Below are positions 54,042 through 64,000 of a stretch of DNA of 64,000 bases, one piece after another. Origin of the DNA: Escherichia phage Ptacy1496; sequence record PQ863253.1; one strand, 5' to 3'. A program made the position numbers and the translations under genes. Each line of letters begins with the position of its first letter. Position 1 is the first letter of the stretch. The notes under the pieces are model-generated. The model was not told where the DNA came from and did not search any database. It was given only the letters and a program-made list of their open reading frames with translations.

Positions 54042-57000
54042 ATGGCCGAGATTAAAAGAAAGTTCAGAGCAGAAGATGGTCTGGACGCAGGTGGCGATAA
54101 AATAATCAACGTAGCTTTAGCTGACCGTACCGTAGGAACTGACGGTGTTAACGTTGATTACTTAATTCAAGAAAACACAGTTCAGCAATATGATCCAACT
54201 CGTGGATATTTAAAAGATTTTGTAATCATTTATAATAATCGTTTTTGGGCAGCAACGGATAATATTCCAAAACCTGCTGGAAATTTTAATAGAATTCGTT
54301 GGAAAGCATTACGTACTGATGCCGTATATACAACCGTATCATCTGGACCATATCAATTAAAATCCGGAGAAGCAATTTCAGTAGATACATCAGTTGGCAA
54401 TGACATTGAGTTTACTTTACCACCTTCTCCGCTTGATGGAGAAACCGTAATAATTCAAGATATCGGTGGAAAACCTGGCATAAATCAGGTTAAAATAAAT
54501 TCTTCAAATCAGAGTATTGTCAATTTTAGAGGTGAACAGGTACGTTCAGTTTTAATGACTCATCCAAAGTCACAGATGATATTCATTTTTAATAATCGTT
54601 TGTGGCAAATGTATGTTGCTGATTATAGCAGAGAAGCTGCGATTGTTACTCCATCGACTGCGTATCAAGCACAATCTAATGATTTTATCGTACGTAGATT
54701 TACTTCTGCTGCACCAATTAATGTTAAACTTCCGAGATTTGCTAATCATGGCGATATTATTAATTTCGTTGATTTAGATAAACTGAATCCACTTTATCAT
54801 ACAATTGTTACTACATACGATGAAACGACTTCAGTACAAGAAGTTGGAACTCATTCCATTGAAGGCCGTACATCGATTGACGGTTTCTTGATGTTTGACG
54901 ATAATGAGAAATTGTGGAGATTGTTTGACGGGGATAGTAAAGCACGTTTACGCATTATAACAACTAATTCAAATATTCGTCCAAATGAAGAAGTCATGGT
55001 ATTTGGCGCGAATAATGGAACAACCCAAACAATTGAACTTCAGCTTCCGACTGATATTTCTGTTGGTGATACTGTTAAAATTTCCATGAATTACATGAGA
55101 AAAGGACAAACAGTTAAAATCAAAGCTGCTGGTGAAGATAAAATTGCTTCTTCAGTTCAATTGCTGCAATTCCCAAAACGTTCAGAATATCCGCCTGAAG
55201 CTGAATGGGTAACAGTTCAAGAATTAGTTTTTAATGGTGAAACTAATTATGTACCAGTTTTGCAACTTGCTTATATAGAAGATTCTGATGGAAAATACTG
55301 GGTTGTACAGCAAAACGTTCCAACAGTTGAAAGAGTCGATTCTTTAAATAATTCTACTAGAGCAAGATTAGGCGTAATTGCTTTAGCTACACAAGCTCAA
55401 GCAAATGCTGATTTAGAAAATTCTCCACAAAAAGAATTAGCAATTACTCCAGAAACGTTAGCTAATCGTACTGCTACTGAAACTCGCAGAGGTATTGCAA
55501 GAATAGCAACTACTGCTCAAGTAAATCAGAACACTACATTCTCTTTTGCAGATGACCTTATCATCACTCCTAAAAAGCTGAATGAAAGAACTGCTACAGA
55601 AACTCGCAGAGGTGTTGCTGAAATTGCTACGCAGCAGGAAACTAATACAGGTATCGATGATACTACAATCATCACTCCTAAAAAGCTTCAAGCTCGTCAA
55701 GGTTCTGAATCATTATCTGGTATTGTAACTTTTGTATCTACCGCAGGAGCTACTCCAGCTTCTAGTCGTGAATTAAATGGTACGAATGTTTATAATAAAA
55801 ACACTAATAATTTAGTTGTTTCACCTAAAGCTTTGGATCAGTATAAAGCTACTCCAACGCAACAAGGCGCAGTAATTTTAGCAGTTGAAAGTGAAGTAAT
55901 TGCTGGACAAAGCCAAGAAGGATGGGCAAATGCGGTTGTAACGCCAGAAACGTTACATAAAAAGACATCAACTGATGCAAGAATTGGTTTAATTGAAATT
56001 GCTACACAAAGTGAAGTTAATACAGGAACTGATTATACTCGTGCAGTCACTCCTAAAACTTTAAATGACCGTAGAGCAACTGAAAGTTTAAGTGGTATAG
56101 CTGAAATTGCTACACAGGTTGAATTCGACGCAGGCGTCGACGATACTCGTATCTCTACACCATTAAAAATTAAAACCAGATTTAATAGTACTGATCGTAC
56201 TTCTGTTGTTGCTCTATCTGGATTAGTTGAATCAGGAACTCTCTGGGACCATTATACCCTTAATATTCTTGAAGCAAATGAGACACAGCGTGGTACACTT
56301 CGTGTAGCTACACAAGTTGAAGCTGCTGCAGGAACATTAGATAATGTTTTAATAACTCCTAAAAAGCTTTTAGGTACTAAATCTACCGAATCGCAAGAAG
56401 GTGTTATTAAAGTTGCAACTCAGTCTGAAACTGTGACTGGAACGTCAGCAAATACTGCTGTATCTCCAAAAAATTTAAAATGGATTGTGCAGAGTGAACC
56501 AACTTGGGCAGCAACTACTCTGATAAGAGGGTTTGTTAAAACTTCTTCTGGTTCATTAACGTTTGTTGGTAATGATACGGTAGGTTCAACACAGCCATTA
56601 GAATCATATGAGAAAAATGGTTATGCAGTATCACCATATGAATTAAATCGCGTATTAGCAAATTATTTGCCATTAAAAGCAAAAGCTGTAGATAGTAATT
56701 TATTAGATGGTCTAGATTCGCTCCAGTTCATTCGTAGGGACATTGCACAAACAGTTAATGGTTCACTAACCTTAACCCAACAAACGAATCTGGGTGCCCC
56801 TCTTGTATCATCTAGTACTGCTACATTCGGTGGATCAGTTTCAGCAAATAGTACATTAACTATTTCTAATACTGGAACGGCAACTCGTCTGATTTTTGAG
56901 AAAGGACCTCAAACTGGAACAAACCCGGCTCAAACGATGACAGTCAGAGTGTGGGGAAATCAATTTAGCGGGGAATCAGACACAACACGTTCTACCGTAT

Positions 57001-57911
57001 TTGAAGTTAGTGATGAAACGTCTAGTCATTTTTATTCTCAGCGTAATAAAGCTGGAAATATAACATTTAATATCAACGGTACAGTAACACCGATAAATGT
57101 TAATGCTTCAGGAACATTGAATGCAAATGGTGTAGCAACATTTGGTAATTCAGTCACTGCAACTGGTGAAATTATTTCTCGAAGCGCAAATGCTTTCCGT
57201 GCTATTAACGGAAATTATGGTTTCATTGTTCGCAATGATGGATCAGTAACGAATTTTATGCTTACTGCATCGGGTGATCAGACTGGTGGATTTAATGGAT
57301 TACGTCCTTTAGCTATTAATAATGCATCTGGCCAAGTAACGATTGGTGAAAGCTTAATCATTGCCAAAGGTGCTACTATAAATTCAGGCGGTTTGACTGT
57401 TAACTCGAGAATTCGTTCTCAGGGCACTAAAACATCTGATTTATACACCCGCGCGCCAACATCTGATACAGTAGGATTCTGGTCAATCGATATTAATGAT
57501 TCAGCCACTTATAACCAGTTCCCGGGTTATTTTAAAATGGTTGAAAAAACTAATGAAGTTACTGGACTTCCATACTTAGAACGTGGTGAAGAAGTTAAAT
57601 CTCCTGGTACATTGACTCAGTTTGGTAACACACTTGATTCACTTTACCAAGATTGGATTACTTATCCAACGACCCCAGAAGCACGTACCACTCGCTGGAC
57701 ACGTACATGGCAGAAAACCAAAAACTCTTGGTCAAGTTTTGTTCAGGTATTTGACGGAGGTAACCCTCCTCAACCTTCAGATATAGGAGCGATCCCATCT
57801 GATAATGGAATAATAGGTAATCTTACTATTCGTGATTTCTTACGAATTGGTAATGTTCGCATTATTCCTGACCCAGTGAATAAAACTGTTAAATTTGAAT
57901 GGGTTGAATAA
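54042..57911 (+). CDS. 34: Long tail fibre proximal subunit gp34
   Basis: 1289 aa, T4 gp34 length; internal TPKKL/ATE-RG repeats; late promoter at 54000-54007. Confidence 0.95.
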   Translation: MAEIKRKFRAEDGLDAGGDKIINVALADRTVGTDGVNVDYLIQENTVQQYDPTRGYLKDFVIIYNNRFWAATDNIPKPAGNFNRIRWKALRTDAVYTTVSSGPYQLKSGEAISVDTSVGNDIEFTLPPSPLDGETVIIQDIGGKPGINQVKINSSNQSIVNFRGEQVRSVLMTHPKSQMIFIFNNRLWQMYVADYSREAAIVTPSTAYQAQSNDFIVRRFTSAAPINVKLPRFANHGDIINFVDLDKLNPLYHTIVTTYDETTSVQEVGTHSIEGRTSIDGFLMFDDNEKLWRLFDGDSKARLRIITTNSNIRPNEEVMVFGANNGTTQTIELQLPTDISVGDTVKISMNYMRKGQTVKIKAAGEDKIASSVQLLQFPKRSEYPPEAEWVTVQELVFNGETNYVPVLQLAYIEDSDGKYWVVQQNVPTVERVDSLNNSTRARLGVIALATQAQANADLENSPQKELAITPETLANRTATETRRGIARIATTAQVNQNTTFSFADDLIITPKKLNERTATETRRGVAEIATQQETNTGIDDTTIITPKKLQARQGSESLSGIVTFVSTAGATPASSRELNGTNVYNKNTNNLVVSPKALDQYKATPTQQGAVILAVESEVIAGQSQEGWANAVVTPETLHKKTSTDARIGLIEIATQSEVNTGTDYTRAVTPKTLNDRRATESLSGIAEIATQVEFDAGVDDTRISTPLKIKTRFNSTDRTSVVALSGLVESGTLWDHYTLNILEANETQRGTLRVATQVEAAAGTLDNVLITPKKLLGTKSTESQEGVIKVATQSETVTGTSANTAVSPKNLKWIVQSEPTWAATTLIRGFVKTSSGSLTFVGNDTVGSTQPLESYEKNGYAVSPYELNRVLANYLPLKAKAVDSNLLDGLDSLQFIRRDIAQTVNGSLTLTQQTNLGAPLVSSSTATFGGSVSANSTLTISNTGTATRLIFEKGPQTGTNPAQTMTVRVWGNQFSGESDTTRSTVFEVSDETSSHFYSQRNKAGNITFNINGTVTPINVNASGTLNANGVATFGNSVTATGEIISRSANAFRAINGNYGFIVRNDGSVTNFMLTASGDQTGGFNGLRPLAINNASGQVTIGESLIIAKGATINSGGLTVNSRIRSQGTKTSDLYTRAPTSDTVGFWSIDINDSATYNQFPGYFKMVEKTNEVTGLPYLERGEEVKSPGTLTQFGNTLDSLYQDWITYPTTPEARTTRWTRTWQKTKNSWSSFVQVFDGGNPPQPSDIGAIPSDNGIIGNLTIRDFLRIGNVRIIPDPVNKTVKFEWVE

Positions 57912-57919
57912 GAGGTATT

Positions 57920-59035
57920 ATGGAAAAATTTATGGCAGAGTTTGGACAAGGATATGTCCAAACGCCATTTTTATCGGAAAGCAATTCAGTAAGATATAAA
58001 ATAAGCATAGCGGGTTCTTGCCCGCTTTCTACTGCGGGGCCATATGTTAAATTTCAGGATAATCCCGTTGGAAATCAAACATTTAGTGCAGGTCTTCATT
58101 TAAGAGTTTTTGACCCTTCTACGGGAGCATTAGTTGATAGCAAGTCATATGCTTTTTCTGCTTCAAACAATACAACATCTGCCGCTTTTGTCAGTTTCAT
58201 GAATTCTTTGTCAAACAATAGACTTGTTGCTATATTAACTAGCGGAAAGGTTAATTTTCCTCCTGAAGTGGTATCTTGGTTAAGGGGAGCAGGAACTTCA
58301 GTTTTTCCATCAGATTCAGTATTGTCAAGATTTGACGTATCATATGCTGCTTTTTATACTTCTTCTAAAAGAGCTATTGCATTAGAGCATGTTAAACTAA
58401 GTAATAGAAAAAGCACAGATGATTATCAAACTATTTTAGATGTTGTATTTGATAGTTTAGAAGACGTCGGAGCGACAGGATTTCCAAAAAGAACTTATGA
58501 AAGTGTCGAGCAATTCATGTCAGCAGTTGGTGGAACTAATAACGAAATTGCGCGATTGCCAACTTCAGCTGCTATAAGTAAACTTTCTGACTATAATTTA
58601 ATTCCTGGTGATGTTCTTTATCTTAAAGCACAGTTATATGCTGATGCTGATTTACTTGATCTTGGAACTACAAACATATCCATTCGTTTTTATGATGCAT
58701 CAAATGGATATATTTCCTCTACCCAAGCTGAGTTTACTGGGCAAGCTGGGTCTTGGGAATTAAAAGAAGACTATGTAGTTGTTCCAGAAAACGCCGTAGG
58801 ATTTACGATATATGCACAAAGAACTGCTCAAGCAGGTCAAGGCGGCATGAGAAATTTAAGCTTTTCTGAAGTATCAAGAAATGGCGGCATTTCAAAACCT
58901 GCCGAATTTGGCGTCAACGGTATTCGCGTTAATTATGTCTGCGAATCGGCTTCACCTCCAGATATAATGGTACTTCCTACACAAGCCTCTTCTAAAACTG
59001 GCAAAGTGTTTGGGCAAGAATTTAGAGAAGTTTAA
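57920..59035 (+). CDS. 35: Long tail fibre hinge protein gp35
   Basis: 371 aa; position between 34 and 36. Confidence 0.9.
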   Translation: MEKFMAEFGQGYVQTPFLSESNSVRYKISIAGSCPLSTAGPYVKFQDNPVGNQTFSAGLHLRVFDPSTGALVDSKSYAFSASNNTTSAAFVSFMNSLSNNRLVAILTSGKVNFPPEVVSWLRGAGTSVFPSDSVLSRFDVSYAAFYTSSKRAIALEHVKLSNRKSTDDYQTILDVVFDSLEDVGATGFPKRTYESVEQFMSAVGGTNNEIARLPTSAAISKLSDYNLIPGDVLYLKAQLYADADLLDLGTTNISIRFYDASNGYISSTQAEFTGQAGSWELKEDYVVVPENAVGFTIYAQRTAQAGQGGMRNLSFSEVSRNGGISKPAEFGVNGIRVNYVCESASPPDIMVLPTQASSKTGKVFGQEFREV

Positions 59036-59097: not shown

Positions 59098-59748
59098 ATG
59101 GCTGATTTAAAAGTAGGTTCAACTGTAGGTGGATCTGTCATTTGGCATCAAGGAAATTTTCCATTGAATTCAGCCGGTGACGATGTACTCTACAAATCAT
59201 TTAAAATATATTCAGAATATAATAAACCGCAGGCAGCTGATAACGATTTCGTTTCTAAAGCTAATGGTGGTACTTACACCGGTCCAATTACTATTAATTA
59301 CGGGGTAAATAGTTATCTTCAATTAAGTAATAATGAAACCCCCATCCGAATTCGTTCTGGTGGCGGCACTGGTAATACTCTTGTAGTTGGTGGCTCTTCT
59401 GGCGGTATTAGTTTTAGACCAGCAGGTAGTGAAATCACTACTGGACAAATTACTATTACGCCAGAAGGTTTGACAACATTTACCAAAGCTGTAACGGCTC
59501 CATCTGTAACTGTTACATCTACTCCTTCCGCAGCATCTGATGTTACTCGCAAAGATTATGTTGATGGAGCAATAAATACTGTTACAGCAAATGCAAACTC
59601 TAGGGTATTACGCTCTGGAGACACTATGACAGGAAATTTAACTGCGCCAAACCTTTTTTCACAGAATCCTGCATCTCAACCTTCACACGTTCCACGATTT
59701 GACCAAATCGTAATTAAGGATTCTGTTCAAGATTTCGGCTATTATTAA
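59098..59748 (+). CDS. 36: Long tail fibre distal connector gp36
   Basis: 216 aa; position upstream of 37. Confidence 0.9.
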
Positions 59749-59756
59749 GAGGACTT

Positions 59757-62723
59757 ATGGCTACTTTAAAACAAATACAATTTAAAAGAAGCAAAACTGC
59801 GGGTCAACGTCCTGCTGCTTCAGTATTAGCCGAAGGTGAATTGGCTATAAACTTAAAAGATAAAACAATTTTCACAAAAGATGACTCAGGTAGTGTTATA
59901 GAATTAGGTTTAAAATATGGAGGAACAATTGATGGTTCTTTAACTGTTAATGGAAATATAATTGGAAATTTAACAGGTAACGCTGCAACTGCAACGAAAT
60001 TAAAAACAGCACGAAAAATTAATGGTATATCCTTTGATGGGTCAAAAGATATCACGCTAACTCCATCTGACATAAATGTCAATAGCACAACGTTTATAAA
60101 AAATAATGGCGAATTACCTGTTGATGCTAATTTAGATACGTATGGGCCTGTTGAAGAATATCTTGGAGTTTGGTCGAAAGCAACTTCAACCAACGCTCAA
60201 CCAGCAAATAAATTTCCAGAAGAAAATGCTGTAGGTGTGCTAGAAGTATTTGTGGCCGGTCAATTTGCTGGTACTCAGAGATATACAACTAGATACGGAA
60301 ATGTTTATATTCGTTCCTTGACTGCTACATGGAACGGAGTAAATGGTCCGTGGAGTGTGTGGCGAAATATTCAATCCGGTACTCGTCCACTGTCAACAAC
60401 AATTGATCTTAATGATCTAGGAGGTGCTGAACACTTTGGCTTGTGGAGGAATAGTTCAAATTCCATTGCTACCTTTGACAGAAATTTCCCAGAAGAGGGG
60501 TCGTCCGCTCAAGGTCTTTTGGAAGTATATGAAGGTGGAAACTATTCTCGCACACAGAGATATACAACCAGATTTGGTGTTGTTTATACTCGTTGTCTTG
60601 CTGCCGCGTGGGATGCTTCTGCTCCTAAATGGGGACCGTGGCAACAAGTCGGTAATGTCACACCGGCGACTTTCTATGACGGAGACCTGAATGATTTTAA
60701 AACTCCTGGGTTATATAATATTTTAGGTACTGATGCCGTTATTAACTGTCCTACAGGTGAAGGTTTGCCGACTGTTATTGTTGGTTTGCTGGAAGTTAAA
60801 CAGCGTGCTTCTGGCGGTGCTATTTTCCAAAAATTTACTACTGCCGGAACGGGTGCAACTACTCGCGATCGTATTTTTGAGCGTGCATATACCGGTGGCG
60901 CGTGGGGTACATGGAACGAAGTATATACATCTTACTCTTTGCCAATTACTTTGGGTATGGGTGGTATTAAAACTCAATTAGCGGAGCTAGATTGGCAAAC
61001 ATTTGATTTTGTTCCTGGTAGTATGTTTAGCGTTCCTTTGAACAAAATAAAGAACATGCCAGCAAATATGAATTGGGGTACAATTGACGGAAACTTAGTT
61101 ATGTTTTCTGTCGGTCCTAGCGAACACACCAGCACAGGACGTACTGTTCAGGTTTGGCGTGGTACTGTATCCCAGACAAACTACCGTTATTTTGTCGTTC
61201 GTGTGTTCGGTAATTCTGGAAATAGAACTTGCACAGTTCGCCGTGTTGTTCTTGAAGACGGATCACATACTTGGACTGCTCAACAAGATTTTAATGGTGC
61301 TGTTAACTTTGGTAGTTCAACAACGTTTAAATCAACTACAACATTTAATACAGAAGTTAAATTTCGCTCATTGAATGCATTCCGTATGTATGGCGGAAAA
61401 TTTGGTACATTTTTACGTAATGATGGAGAGAGTCTTTATATTCTTTCCACCGACGAAGATGATCAAGATGGAAACTTTAATACAAATAGACCTTTCCGTT
61501 ATGAATTAAGAACTGGTGATGTTACTTTGGGTGGTGCTAGTGGTGCTAACGTTTTAAAATTAAAACGTGATTCTCTCACCGCATTTTTTGGCGGTGATAT
61601 TAACATTAAAGGCACGATGACTTTTGACGCCGGACGTTTAGGATCACGAGATTATTTTAAATTTAACCATTGGGGTGATAGTAATAATGCGCGTGATAAC
61701 ATTATTCAGTTAGAAGACAGCAAAGGCGCTCATTTTTCAACTGAACGTACTTTAGCGACTGGTGCAATTAAGACTAAATTTTTTGGTGAAATTGAATCCG
61801 ATGGTAAATTGGTTATTAAACGTCCGGGTGATTCTATTGTATTATCAACGACTGCTAGTAATTCTTTGCATATTCGTGGTGACATAGACGGGACTGGTAA
61901 CTGGTATATTGGTAAGGGTGGTGCTGATAATTCGCTAGCATTTTATAGCTATGCTTCTCAGGCGGCAGTACATATCACAAACAATGGTGAGATTGCGTTA
62001 AACCCGCAAAATACCGCAATGGTTAACGTTAACCGTGACCGTGTACACATTAACGGTTCTGGATGGATTGCTAGACAACCGGGTGATTGGGGCAACCAAT
62101 GGCGAGTAGAAGCTCCATTATTCGTTGATCATGGTTATGTTTCACAGGATTGTTATTATCCTATTCTTAAAGCAAGAAGCGTTATAACCAATCAAGGATA
62201 TAGCACCGCTGTTGACTTTGGTATGCGTCGTATTCCATCACAGTGGGGGCAAGCAATCATTCGTGTCGGATCCACGGAGGCTTCTCCTGATGCTGGACAC
62301 CCACAAGCTGTGTTTGAATTCCATCATGATGGATTCTTTTATACACCAGGAAATGGTAGCTTTAGCGATGTGTATATTCGTTCTGACTCCCGTCTCAAGA
62401 TTAATAAAGAAGAATTAGAATATGGAGCGGTCGAAAAAGTTTGCCGACTGAAAGTTTATATTTACGATAAAGTTAAGTCTATTAAAGACCGTAGTGTTAT
62501 TAAACGTGAAGTTGGTATTATTGCTCAGGACCTTGAAAAGGAATTACCGGAAGCTGTATCTAAAGTTGAAGTTGATGGATCTGATGTTCTGACAATTTCT
62601 AACTCTGCTGTGAATGCTCTTTTAATTAAGGCTATTCAGGAAATGAGTGAAGAAATTAAAGAATTGAAAACGCCTCTCTTTACTAAAATTGCTCGCAAAA
62701 TTAGTAAATATTTTAAATTCTAA
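59757..62723 (+). CDS. 37: Long tail fibre distal subunit gp37 (T2/T6 type, C-terminal chaperone-like domain)
   Basis: 988 aa; N-terminus conserved with T4 gp37; C-terminal ~110 aa resemble an intramolecular chaperone / S74-type domain. Confidence 0.9.
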
Positions 62724-62729
62724 CAACAA

Positions 62730-62747
62730 GGGGGAAATGCCCCCTTT
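62730..62747 (+). terminator. Hairpin after gene 37
   Basis: GGGGG-AAATG-CCCCC followed by TTTGG. Confidence 0.6.
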
Positions 62748-62759
62748 GGAGTATAAATT

Positions 62760-63542
62760 ATGGCAGTAGTTGGTGTTCCTGGTTGGATTGGAAGTTCAGC
62801 CGCAAATGAAACAGGACAACGCTGGATGAGTCAAGCGGCTGGTCAATTAAGATTGGGTGTTCCTTGCTGGATGAGTCAATTTGCAGGTCGCTCACGAGAA
62901 ATTATTCACACGCTTGGAGCAGACCATAACTTCAATGGTCAATGGTTCCGAGATAGATGTTTTGAGGCAGGTAGTGCACCTATAGTGTTTAATATTACAG
63001 GTGATTTAGTATCATATTCTAAAGATGTTCCTTTATTCTTCATGTACGGAGATACACCAAATGAATATGTTCAGTTAAATATACATGGCGTAACGATGTA
63101 TGGTCGTGGAGGTAATGGTGGTAGCAATAGTCCTGGCTCAGCTGGGGGTCATTGTATTCAAAACGATATTGGTGGGAGACTAAGAATTAATAATGGCGGA
63201 GCTATTGCAGGCGGTGGCGGTGGCGGTGGCGGCGGATATTATTCTCCTTTTTCACAAATGAGATTGACCTTTGGCGGCGGTGGCGGTCGTCCTTTTGGTG
63301 CGCCAGGCGGATCTATTGATATGCAATCAGGCGCGACTGGTGGTACTATTTCTGCACCTGGCTCAGGATCCGTGAATGGTATCTATAATGGCGGAAACGG
63401 TGGTGAAGTAGGTTCCGCGGGAGGTAGATGCAATATTCGCGGTCAAGGATCTGAATATGATGGCGGTGCTGCTGGTTATGCTGTCATAGGGTCCGCTCCA
63501 ACATGGCAAAATGTTGGAGCAATATATGGTCCAAGAGTATAA
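62760..63542 (+). CDS. 38: gp38 receptor-recognising adhesin (T2/T6 type) with glycine-rich motifs
   Basis: 260 aa with several poly-Gly blocks ([28 protein letters not shown] etc.); unlike the 183 aa chaperone-type T4 gp38. Confidence 0.88.
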
Positions 63543-63572: not shown

Positions 63573-64000
63573 ATGGCAGCACCTAGAATATCATTTTCGC
63601 CCTCTGATATTCTATTTGGTGTTCTAGATCGCTTGTTCAAAGATAATGCTACCGGGAAAGTTCTTGCTTCCCGGGTAGCTGTCGTAATTCTTTTGTTTAT
63701 AATGGCGATTGTTTGGTATAGGGGAGATAGTTTCTTTGAGTACTATAAGCAATCAAAGTATGAAACATACAGCGAAATTATTGAAAAGGAAAGAAATGCA
63801 CGCTTTGAATCTGTCGCCCTGGAACAACTCCAGATAGTTCATATATCATCTGAGGCAGACTTTAGTGCGGTATATTCTTTCCGCCCTAAAAACTTAAACT
63901 ATTTTGTTGATATTATAGCATACGAAGGAAAATTACCTTCAACAATAAGCGAAAAATCACTTGGAGGATATCCTGTTGATAAAACTATGGATGAATATGC
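63573..64000 (+). CDS. t: Holin t, N-terminal part (continues beyond window)
   Basis: ATG 63573 preceded by AAGGAGG; N-terminal TM segment VAVVILLFIMAIVWY. Confidence 0.9.
   Translation, partial: MAAPRISFSPSDILFGVLDRLFKDNATGKVLASRVAVVILLFIMAIVWYRGDSFFEYYKQSKYETYSEIIEKERNARFESVALEQLQIVHISSEADFSAVYSFRPKNLNYFVDIIAYEGKLPSTISEKSLGGYPVDKTMDEY

Follow-up and report, generated by a model that had tools for sequence, protein, structure and literature searches.

In T-even phages, the long tail fibres first bind reversibly, and this binding licenses both the short tail fibres and contraction of the tail, functions whose genes lie outside the region described here. Phage S16 is OmpC-dependent. Its gp38 (PDB 6F45; Dunne et al. 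2018, as described in PMC6851490) has three parts: an attachment domain whose tryptophan prongs enter the gp37 trimer, a beta-helix, and a polyglycine-II sandwich whose distal loops are formed by hypervariable segments (HVSs). Its gp37 is cleaved at DLNVS^SDRRIKK, with removal of 113 residues, and the same cleavage has been predicted for the fPS phages at DVYIR^SDGRLKI (PMC7917993). Trojet et al. (2011) recognize adhesins of this kind by five ordered glycine-rich motifs (GRMs), four HVSs and a conserved C-terminal end, and report Tsx as the receptor of all T6-like adhesins in their study, that of T6 being the classical Tsx-binding adhesin (PMC3157838). Phage T4 has a different arrangement at the same genomic position: a gp38 of 183 aa that is unrelated and serves as an assembly chaperone, and a gp37 of 1026 aa that lacks an S74 domain and bears the receptor-binding tip itself. 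Both lengths (NC_000866) had been quoted correctly in the first-pass annotation of the DNA considered below.

Receptors have been assigned to several relatives of T6. By RB-TnSeq, the Shigella phage CM8 uses Tsx/HepI; it is counter-selected on a tsx deletion, and its receptor was switched by a swap of gp38 (bioRxiv 10.64898/2026.04.02.716166). Tsx dependence of Bas35 has been complemented (PMC8594841), and U115 depends on Tsx (PMC8852279, PMC7414163). Specificity can also shift with small changes. One HVS substitution in RB68, Q206L, moves the receptor from OmpF to OmpW (bioRxiv 10.64898/2026.04.02.716166), and in PST a few changes add OmpA and Yersinia (PMC3157838). Here we compare with these systems the distal fibre module of Escherichia phage Ptacy1496, contained in a window of 64,000 nucleotides, the whole stretch of record PQ863253.1 that was analysed.

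Organization of the locus

The gene order gp34-35-36-37-38-t is that annotated in T6, PST, RB14, Bas35 and CM8, and the block is that of a T6-like Tequatrovirus. The open reading frames of genes 37 and 38 lie exactly at the coordinates given at first pass (Table 1). Gene t, which runs off the window, forms a conserved boundary downstream of the module. The 36 nt between genes 37 and 38 hold a GC-rich hairpin followed by the ribosome-binding site of gene 38; besides this intergenic hairpin, sigma-70 promoter and terminator scans of the region returned nothing. The element TATAAATT adjoins the gene 38 ATG directly on its 5' side; the idea that it is a T4 late promoter was considered and dropped, because a transcript begun there would miss the gene start. 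Minus-strand open reading frames across the region are all of 129 aa or less, lie within the two long plus-strand genes and were treated as spurious.

Table 1. Features of the distal tail-fibre module of Ptacy1496 (nucleotide positions in the window; residues numbered within the respective protein).
Feature	Nucleotides	Strand	Residues	Basis
Gene 37, long tail fibre distal subunit, precursor	59757..62723	+	988 aa	ORF
Three tandem ~87-aa repeats, gp37 shaft	60129..60941	+	aa ~125-395	self-alignment
T6/U115-type recombinant cassette, ~540 nt, gp37	61287..61826	+	aa ~505-690	90-nt window identities
Predicted last beta-strand of mature gp37, D871-V-Y-I-R875, and predicted gp38 docking tip	62367..62381	+	aa 871-875	S16 alignment
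Intramolecular chaperone (IMC) of gp37, predicted to be auto-cleaved	62382..62720	+	aa 876-988 (113 aa)	PF13884
GC-rich hairpin GGGGG-AAATG-CCCCC	62730..62744	+		terminator-like scan, sequence reading
Gene 38 ribosome-binding site GGAG, after the hairpin	62748-62751	+		sequence reading
Gene 38, monomeric tail-fibre adhesin, T6/Tsx subtype	62760..63542	+	260 aa	Pfam, phrog_2056, PDB
gp38 N-terminal attachment domain	62760..62897	+	aa 1-46	W9, W22, W37
gp38 specificity domain	63099..63491	+		segment table, 12-sequence alignment
GRM1, YGRGGNGG	63099-63122	+	aa 114-121	
HVS1	63123-63191	+		
GRM2	63192-63236	+	aa 145-159	
HVS2	63237-63269	+		
GRM3	63270-63311	+	aa 171-184	
HVS3	63312-63386	+		
GRM4	63387-63425	+	aa 210-222	
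HVS4	63426-63461	+		
GRM5	63462-63491	+	aa 235-244	
Gene t (holin), start; runs off window	63573..64000	+		141/142 aa as in T4 holin

gp38 belongs to the adhesin type

Residues 1-42 of gp38 match the family Gp38_N (PF21721; 71 bits against a cut-off of 25, E=6.2e-20), and residues 47-260 match GP38 (PF05268; 241 bits against a cut-off of 25, E=1.4e-71) over profile positions 1-218 of 218; with such values the likeness to adhesins reflects homology and not chance. phrog_2056 covers residues 1-260 (3e-112), and the PHROG families matched by gp37 and gp38 are those of the long-tail-fibre distal subunit and of host specificity. Among solved structures, the gp38 of S16 (6F45_D) aligns with residues 5-257 (E=1e-49) and that of PP01 (9V85) with residues 38-260 (E=8e-79). 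Judged by these full-length matches, gp38 is of the adhesin type, as the first-pass annotation had held, and we infer a polyglycine-II sandwich fold from its homology to 6F45_D and 9V85.

In an alignment of 12 adhesins, five GRMs alternate with four HVSs, which bears out the earlier description of glycine-rich motifs separated by variable segments. Neither of the two outcomes named at first pass as refuting, a full-length alignment with T4 gp38 or a missing glycine-rich pattern, was obtained. Glycine makes up 24% of gp38 overall and 34% of residues 115-260, and a local GC content of up to 0.48 coincides with this Gly-rich (GGN codon) part of gene 38. The adhesins proposed at first pass for such a comparison were those of T2, T6, K3, Ox2 and S16. 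T2, T6 and S16 were compared; K3 and Ox2 gp38 had no record among the matches listed in the phage-collection searches, and the adhesin of the OmpA-dependent Bas45/PaulHMueller served instead as the OmpA-type representative. Against the adhesins of PaulHMueller (OmpA), T2 (FadL) and S16 (OmpC), 7-14 positions match in each GRM, none of 11 in HVS2 and 1-7 of 12 in HVS4. In the attachment domain, W9, W22 and W37 do not vary among the 12 aligned sequences, T2 and S16 included, and internal repeats in the DNA of gene 38 surround the codon of each of the three.

The adhesin sequence points to Tsx

The gp38 of KEP10 is 100% identical to that of Ptacy1496, including all four HVSs, and 20 public contigs carry the exact sequence; since it is already public, the adhesin is not new. 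CM8 gp38 differs by W37L only, outside the specificity domain, and is identical from residue 38 on, its specificity domain (residues 114-260) corresponding residue for residue. Six residues differ in the gp38 of WilhelmHis/Bas35, one of them within the HVSs (D234N); two differ in U115, both in HVSs, and two in RB14, one of them in an HVS. T6 gp38 is 94% identical. Its 16 differences, including one extra Gly in T6, fall mostly in the beta-helix region; HVS1 and HVS4 are identical, and the four HVS residues that differ are S165P in HVS2 and D187N, A199S and N206I in HVS3. More distant are the adhesins of Bas45 (OmpA-type, 61% identity), T2 (FadL-type, 52%) and S16 (OmpC-type, 50%, with unrelated HVS2-4). 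The module had been described as T2/T6-type; it is T6-type, because gp38 is 94% identical to that of T6 and only 52% to that of T2, and because the IMC has 113 aa, as in the T6-type group and S16, rather than the 99 aa of T2.

As gp38 is identical or nearly identical to the adhesins of KEP10, CM8, Bas35, U115 and RB14, the predicted receptor is Tsx, and not OmpA, OmpF, FadL or OmpC. A prediction based on similarity is safe here only because a characterised phage has exactly this specificity domain. The earlier suggestion that the variable segments should predict the receptor is borne out in so far as they appear to point to Tsx.

The C-terminal chaperone of gp37

The first-pass annotation had regarded the C-terminus of gp37, from about residue 880 to 988, as chaperone-like. 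A Peptidase_S74 domain (PF13884; E=6.4e-10, 39.6 bits against a cut-off of 22) matches residues 876-934 from profile position 1, and the domain extends to the C-terminus at residue 988. The chaperone assignment stands, and its start moves by four residues: the IMC is taken as 876-988 because the boundary aligned with S16 lies at R875/S876. With the C-terminus of S16 gp37 the IMC gives a BLASTP match of 4e-08; PDB 6F45_A is matched modestly (6e-04), and weaker PDB matches are to the 8JOV tail fibre and the 7DC3 MYRF domain. The number of residues in the IMC equals the number removed in S16.

Around the boundary, DVYIR^SDSRLKI aligns with S16 DLNVS^SDRRIKK, so that S876-D-S-R-L-K881 faces S-D-R-R-I-K and DVYIR faces DLNVS, directly before the reported cleavage site; the residue preceding the cut is Arg in Ptacy1496 and Ser in S16. 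From work on the K1F endosialidase, a Ser and a Lys five residues later are said to form the catalytic pair. T6 gp37 has the same DVYIR^SDSRLK site, T2 and Bas45 gp37 carry NVYIR^SDIRLK, and (D/N)VYIR is kept in T2 and PaulHMueller gp37 although the sequence upstream is unrelated. The S-D-x-R-x-K motif is not present in T4 gp37. Taken with the S16 alignment, this pattern suggests that the IMC is probably cut off between R875 and S876. A single-sequence AlphaFold2 model of gp37 residues 846-988 had a mean pLDDT of 48.3, too low for comparison with solved structures.

Mosaic structure of gp37

phrog_1699 (long tail fiber protein distal subunit) covers gp37 residues 1-983 (2e-228), and the closest gp37 protein in the phage database, that of fFiEco06, is 94% identical. 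The N-terminal 66 aa are conserved with T4 gp37 (79% identity); beyond them, the likeness to the T4 protein consists of weak shaft similarity. The 749-aa gp37 of S16 is unrelated in its shaft except at the N-terminus. Self-alignment of the shaft revealed three tandem repeats, the second and third with 40% and 18% identity to the first, whose invariant columns include G, L-E-V, Q, T-T, R and two W. No Pfam family matched the three repeats, and a PDB sequence search gave nothing significant (best E=0.9); phrog_4618 covers residues 106-325. The repeats are presumably globular shaft domains and have no part in receptor recognition.

Gene 37 DNA is 96-100% identical to that of KEP10 (AB326954) over aa 1-500 and 691-988, tip and IMC included, and the proteins are 988 and 982 aa long, respectively. 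Between these parts lies a cassette of T6/U115 type, in which the identity to KEP10 in 90-nt windows drops from 96-100% to 31-44%, whereas that to T6 is 92-100%, save for the first window (61287-61376) at 70%; from nt 61827, identity to KEP10 is back at 94-100%. Comparison at the protein level agrees with these limits. The cassette holds a Gp34_trimer-like domain at aa 517-581 (PF21446, 9e-13), which PDB fragments of gp34 match at about 3e-08. As a whole, gp37 is 91% identical to that of T6, with 98% identity in the IMC and only 60-78% at aa 200-300 and 750-800. The shafts of Bas35, U115 and RB14 differ (71-79% identity overall), U115 being different in the gp37 tip and IMC region as well, and the gene 37 DNA profile of CM8 follows that of KEP10 except for a divergent stretch at aa ~60-300. 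gp37 is a mosaic of known alleles. The exact sequence was absent among a collection of 15 billion proteins, and no public record contains this allele, in which a shaft cassette of T6 type sits in a KEP10 backbone.

A model for the fibre tip

The open reading frames, domain matches, motif pattern, sequence identities and mosaic structure described above are direct observations, and we consider it highly probable that they represent the distal long-tail-fibre and adhesin module of a T6-like Tequatrovirus that works as follows. gp37 would be made as a 988-aa precursor in which, going by family membership, the C-terminal IMC drives trimerization and folding of the beta-helical tip. By alignment with S16 (PMC7917993), the IMC would then cleave itself off at R875/S876 and depart, exposing a flat, trimeric tip with DVYIR as its last residues. 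One gp38 would cap this tip through its N-terminal helical bundle, with W9, W22 and W37, invariant here, entering three equivalent pockets as in the S16 crystal structure. The GRMs would pack into the polyglycine-II sandwich and display the hypervariable loops distally, where, to judge from the receptors of near-identical adhesins, they would bind Tsx, the nucleoside channel in the outer membrane of E. coli. Once the long fibres had bound reversibly in this way, the short tail fibres and contraction of the tail would be licensed, as in other T-even phages.

A T4-like reading, in which gp38 is a non-virion assembly chaperone and the receptor is bound by the C-terminal end of gp37, has in its favour only the gene name and position shared with T4. 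This reading has next to no chance of being right and, at the level of sequence, is already refuted: the best BLASTP alignment of gp38 with T4 gp38 spans 12 residues at E=1.7, the whole of gp38 matches families and structures of adhesins, and gp37 does not align with the receptor-binding tip of T4 gp37 and ends in an S74 chaperone that the T4 protein lacks. As to the receptor, the adhesin architecture may be right and the primary receptor still be OmpA, OmpF, FadL, OmpC, OmpW or LPS. In RB68 and PST, one or a few substitutions were enough to change or widen specificity; type-1 OmpA adhesins lie phylogenetically near the Tsx group (Lutz et al.); and fPS-65, with a gp38 that is 97% identical at the DNA level, requires LPS inner-core heptoses on Yersinia. 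Moreover, JK38 is a Tsx phage whose gp38 is 83% identical to an OmpA-type adhesin, and therefore subtype and receptor are not one-to-one. We nevertheless regard a primary receptor other than Tsx as improbable, since the specificity domain is that of CM8, for which a genome-wide screen and tsx-deletion counter-selection agree, three further Tsx-dependent phages (Bas35, U115 and RB14) are only one or two HVS residues away, and the positions that distinguish PST carry the T6/RB14 residues S165, Q166, M167 and G207.

Binding of Tsx on E. coli might also be combined with recognition of a non-Tsx structure on Y. pseudotuberculosis or Y. pestis, giving a polyvalent adhesin and a cross-genus host range. 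The gp38 of PYps47T equals that of Ptacy1496 plus an 18-aa duplication (GRM2/HVS2), and that of PYps32T shares 98.9% identity and differs in length by the equivalent of 3 codons. Y. pseudotuberculosis was the isolation host of both phages, which lyse 41-68% of 128 strains (PMC8762354). RB14 and RB5, which have T6-like adhesins, gave low-frequency Yersinia plaques in the work of Trojet et al., according to whom Y. pseudotuberculosis has no Tsx homologue (PMC3157838). Given these near-matches in phages of Y. pseudotuberculosis and the lack of a Tsx homologue in that species, Tsx may not be the sole receptor. However, the efficient infection of Yersinia by PST maps to substitutions that are missing from Ptacy1496 gp38, the GRM2/HVS2 insertions of the PYps phages may themselves confer recognition of Yersinia, and host range depends as well on short tail fibres and intracellular factors that are not visible in this region. 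On balance, polyvalency seems to us a serious but rather unlikely prospect, and recognition of Tsx on E. coli is the preferred prediction.

Significance

The module is a well-studied receptor-binding tip, ordinary for a T6-like E. coli phage, and the finding is in this sense already known. Earlier work has established gp38 of the adhesin type with its GRM/HVS design, as well as the polyglycine sandwich and the gp37 chaperone that cleaves itself; with the exact adhesin sequence in GenBank from several phages there is little discovery value. The shaft cassette of gp37 is a further case of the routine mosaicism in T-even fibre genes. The practical value lies in annotation, in that Ptacy1496 can be labelled a Tsx-dependent T6-like Tequatrovirus from sequence alone. 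Bacteria that lose Tsx become cross-resistant to T6, U115 and the antibiotic albicidin (PMC8245764, PMC8852279), and because of this cross-resistance the Tsx label is useful in choosing phages for cocktails.

An adhesin-type gp38

The first-pass annotation had read this region as a T2/T6-type receptor-binding module with an adhesin-type gp38, and its observation and its interpretation are both supported. In Pfam, gp38 matches Gp38_N over residues 1-42 (6e-20) and GP38, 'phage tail fibre adhesin', over residues 47-260 (1.4e-71, all 218 profile positions spanned); in PHROGs it is assigned to 'tail fiber protein; host specificity' (3e-112). PDB sequence matches agree, with residues 5-257 aligning to the S16 gp38 crystal structure (6F45_D, 1e-49) and residues 38-260 to 9V85 (8e-79), the PP01 gp38 receptor-binding domain as an sfGFP fusion (PMC12892980). 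By contrast, the chaperone-type gp38 of T4 (183 aa, beside a gp37 of 1026 aa, as first noted) shows no similarity to the window protein in BLASTP (best E=1.7, 12 residues), and the adhesin reading stands.

An ORF scan places gp37 and gp38 where they were first annotated, at the end of the co-directional block gp34-gp35-gp36-gp37-gp38-t. This gene order is that annotated in T6, PST, RB14, Bas35, CM8 and T4, and the final 25 kb of the window has 95-97% DNA identity to many Tequatroviruses over ~94% of its length. Minus-strand ORFs in the region, short and nested within the long genes, were disregarded. A perfect hairpin (GGGGG-AAATG-CCCCC) lies in the 36-nt gp37/gp38 gap, directly 5' of the ribosome-binding site of gene 38, and might act in attenuation or affect transcript stability. 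In the hinge connector gp35, residues 58-112 match Pfam ILEI (interleukin-like EMT inducer domain; 33 bits, cut-off 27), an unexpected family name in a phage fibre protein.

Genes and sequence features of the gp34-t region (nt of the window unless marked aa)
Feature	Position	Orientation	Remarks
gp34	54042..57911	co-directional with gp37/gp38	1289 aa
gp35	57920..59035	co-directional with gp37/gp38	
gp36	59098..59748	co-directional with gp37/gp38	
gp37	59757..62723	+	988 aa
gp38	62760..63542	+	260 aa
gene t (holin)	start at 63573	co-directional with gp37/gp38	141/142 identity to T4 T
gp37 shaft repeats	60129-60941		aa ~125-395
DNA repeat D1	60301-60316, 62368-62383		16 nt, 94% identical
Hairpin	62730-62744		
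DNA repeats D2, D6	62772-62889		gp38 N-terminal domain
GGC/GGT runs in GRM2 and GRM3 DNA	63205-63287		
gp38 GRM1	aa 114-121		alignment
gp38 GRM2	aa 145-159		alignment
gp38 GRM3	aa 171-184		alignment
gp38 GRM4	aa 210-222		alignment
gp38 GRM5	aa 235-244		alignment

The glycine-rich motifs with intervening variable segments that had been proposed for gp38 are seen when it is aligned with 11 reference adhesins (KEP10, Bas35, U115, RB14, PST, PYps47T, Pinarejo, T6, Bas45/PaulHMueller, T2 and S16). As in the adhesin pattern of Trojet et al. (PMC3157838), variable segments HVS1-4 sit between the conserved motifs GRM1-5, and the C-terminal end is conserved. Against three distant adhesins, 7-14 positions match per GRM vs 0/11 in HVS2. 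Glycine makes up 34% of residues 115-260, a stretch that coincides with a local GC peak of 0.48. The DNA encoding GRM2 and GRM3 contains near-identical GGC/GGT runs 51-66 nt apart; gp38 of PYps47T (record L010, 4001-4837) carries an exact 18-aa tandem duplication over just this repeat interval, which looks like unequal crossing-over between glycine-codon repeats.

Three tryptophans, W9, W22 and W37, are invariant in the 12-sequence alignment; in the S16 structure, they form prongs, which the gp37 trimer receives in three equivalent pockets (PMC6851490). The CM8 record (L013, 4001-4783) has Leu at residue 37, where the docking Trp is otherwise invariant; either CM8 tolerates the change or its sequence is in error here. 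Repeats D2 and D6 encode VPGW, RWMSQAAG and PCWMSQFAG, one per docking tryptophan, which suggests that the monomeric attachment domain originated by internal triplication, fitting the threefold gp37 tip.

Predicted receptor

Because of the following gp38 comparisons, the receptor of this phage is predicted, with high confidence, to be Tsx; the variable segments, expected from the outset to foretell the receptor, indicate it by identity or near-identity to adhesins of Tsx phages. The adhesin sequence is already public: it is 100% identical to KEP10 gp38 and on record in 20 public contigs. CM8 gp38 differs only by W37L, so that the specificity domain is identical; CM8 was assigned to Tsx/HepI by RB-TnSeq and moved to OmpA by gp38 exchange from HVS2 onward (2026 preprint, bioRxiv 10.64898/2026.04.02.716166). 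Six residues differ from WilhelmHis (Bas35), only D234N within the HVSs, and the Tsx dependence of Bas35 has been complemented (PMC8594841). Two residues differ from RB14 and two from U115, which needs Tsx (PMC8852279). From T6 there are 16 differences, including one extra Gly in T6, and Trojet et al. (PMC3157838) report Tsx recognition for all T6-like adhesins. PST has an extended host range, including OmpA and Yersinia (PMC3157838); at the positions that distinguish PST from T6 and RB14, the window protein has the T6/RB14 residues. Identity is 61% to OmpA-type Bas45, 50% to S16 and 52% to T2, and of the original 'T2/T6-type' label only the T6 part holds.

The Tsx prediction carries the caveats that one HVS change can switch receptor (bioRxiv 10.64898/2026.04.02.716166) and that PYps47T and PYps32T, isolated on Y. 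pseudotuberculosis (PMC8762354), carry the window's adhesin, differing only by a short insertion. Cross-genus polyvalence of this adhesin towards Yersinia is conceivable but rather unlikely. Separately, Shigella phage JK38 is listed as Tsx/Kdo (bioRxiv 10.64898/2026.04.02.716166), although its gp38 (MK962755, 157875-158657) shares 83% identity with the adhesin of OmpA-dependent Bas45; Tsx-binding gp38 proteins thus form at least two subtypes, and going by overall similarity alone can be misleading.

The gp37 fibre

A chaperone-like C-terminus had been proposed for gp37 at about residues 880-988. Sequence matches support this domain: Peptidase_S74 ('chaperone of endosialidase') matches residues 876-934 from profile position 1 (39.6 bits, cut-off 22), and the S16 gp37 C-terminus aligns with the last ~118 residues (4e-08 pairwise; PDB 6F45_A, 6e-04), with weaker PDB matches to 8JOV, another phage tail fibre, and to 7DC3, the MYRF domain. 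Its start needs revision. For S16 gp37, cleavage with release of 113 residues is reported at DLNVS^SDRRIKK, and DVYIR^SDGRLKI is the predicted site in fPS phages (PMC7917993). Window gp37 has the predicted site DVYIR875^S876DSRLKI and a 113-aa tail, which sets the boundary at 876. T2 and Bas45 gp37 have NVYIR^SDIRLK and a 99-aa tail, and T4 gp37 lacks an SDxRLK-type cleavage motif. The (N/D)VYIRS sequence occurs twice, at residues 871-876 and, encoded by the other D1 copy, at residues 182-187 in shaft repeat 1; the shaft copy is probably coincidence.

The shaft contains three tandem ~87-aa repeats with the common pattern G-LEV...Q..TT...R...W..W, the later copies having 40% and 18% identity to repeat 1. 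They have no match in Pfam or in the PDB sequence search; the sole match over them is phrog_4618, 'tail collar fiber protein' (aa 106-325).

Profiled in 90-nt windows against KEP10, T6 and U115, the gp37/gp38 module matches KEP10 at 96-100% identity everywhere but at nt ~61287-61826 (aa ~505-690), where KEP10 identity is 31-44% and that to T6/U115 is 92-100% after a first window of about 70%. This cassette, far from the adhesin docking site, holds a Gp34_trimer-like domain (aa 517-581; Pfam, PDB gp34 fragments). The complete gp37 protein was not found in a 15-billion-sequence collection, and its nearest relative in the phage database is that of fFiEco06 (94% identity). The module is already known, with only the recombinant gp37 shaft allele lacking a public record, and the mosaic reflects the usual exchange of modules among T-even fibre genes. 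KEP10, CM8, phage 107 and Bas35 share the gp37 tip (aa 816-875) and the intramolecular chaperone at 100% identity, T6 at 98%; on these identities, tip, chaperone and gp38 would fit a co-inherited unit.
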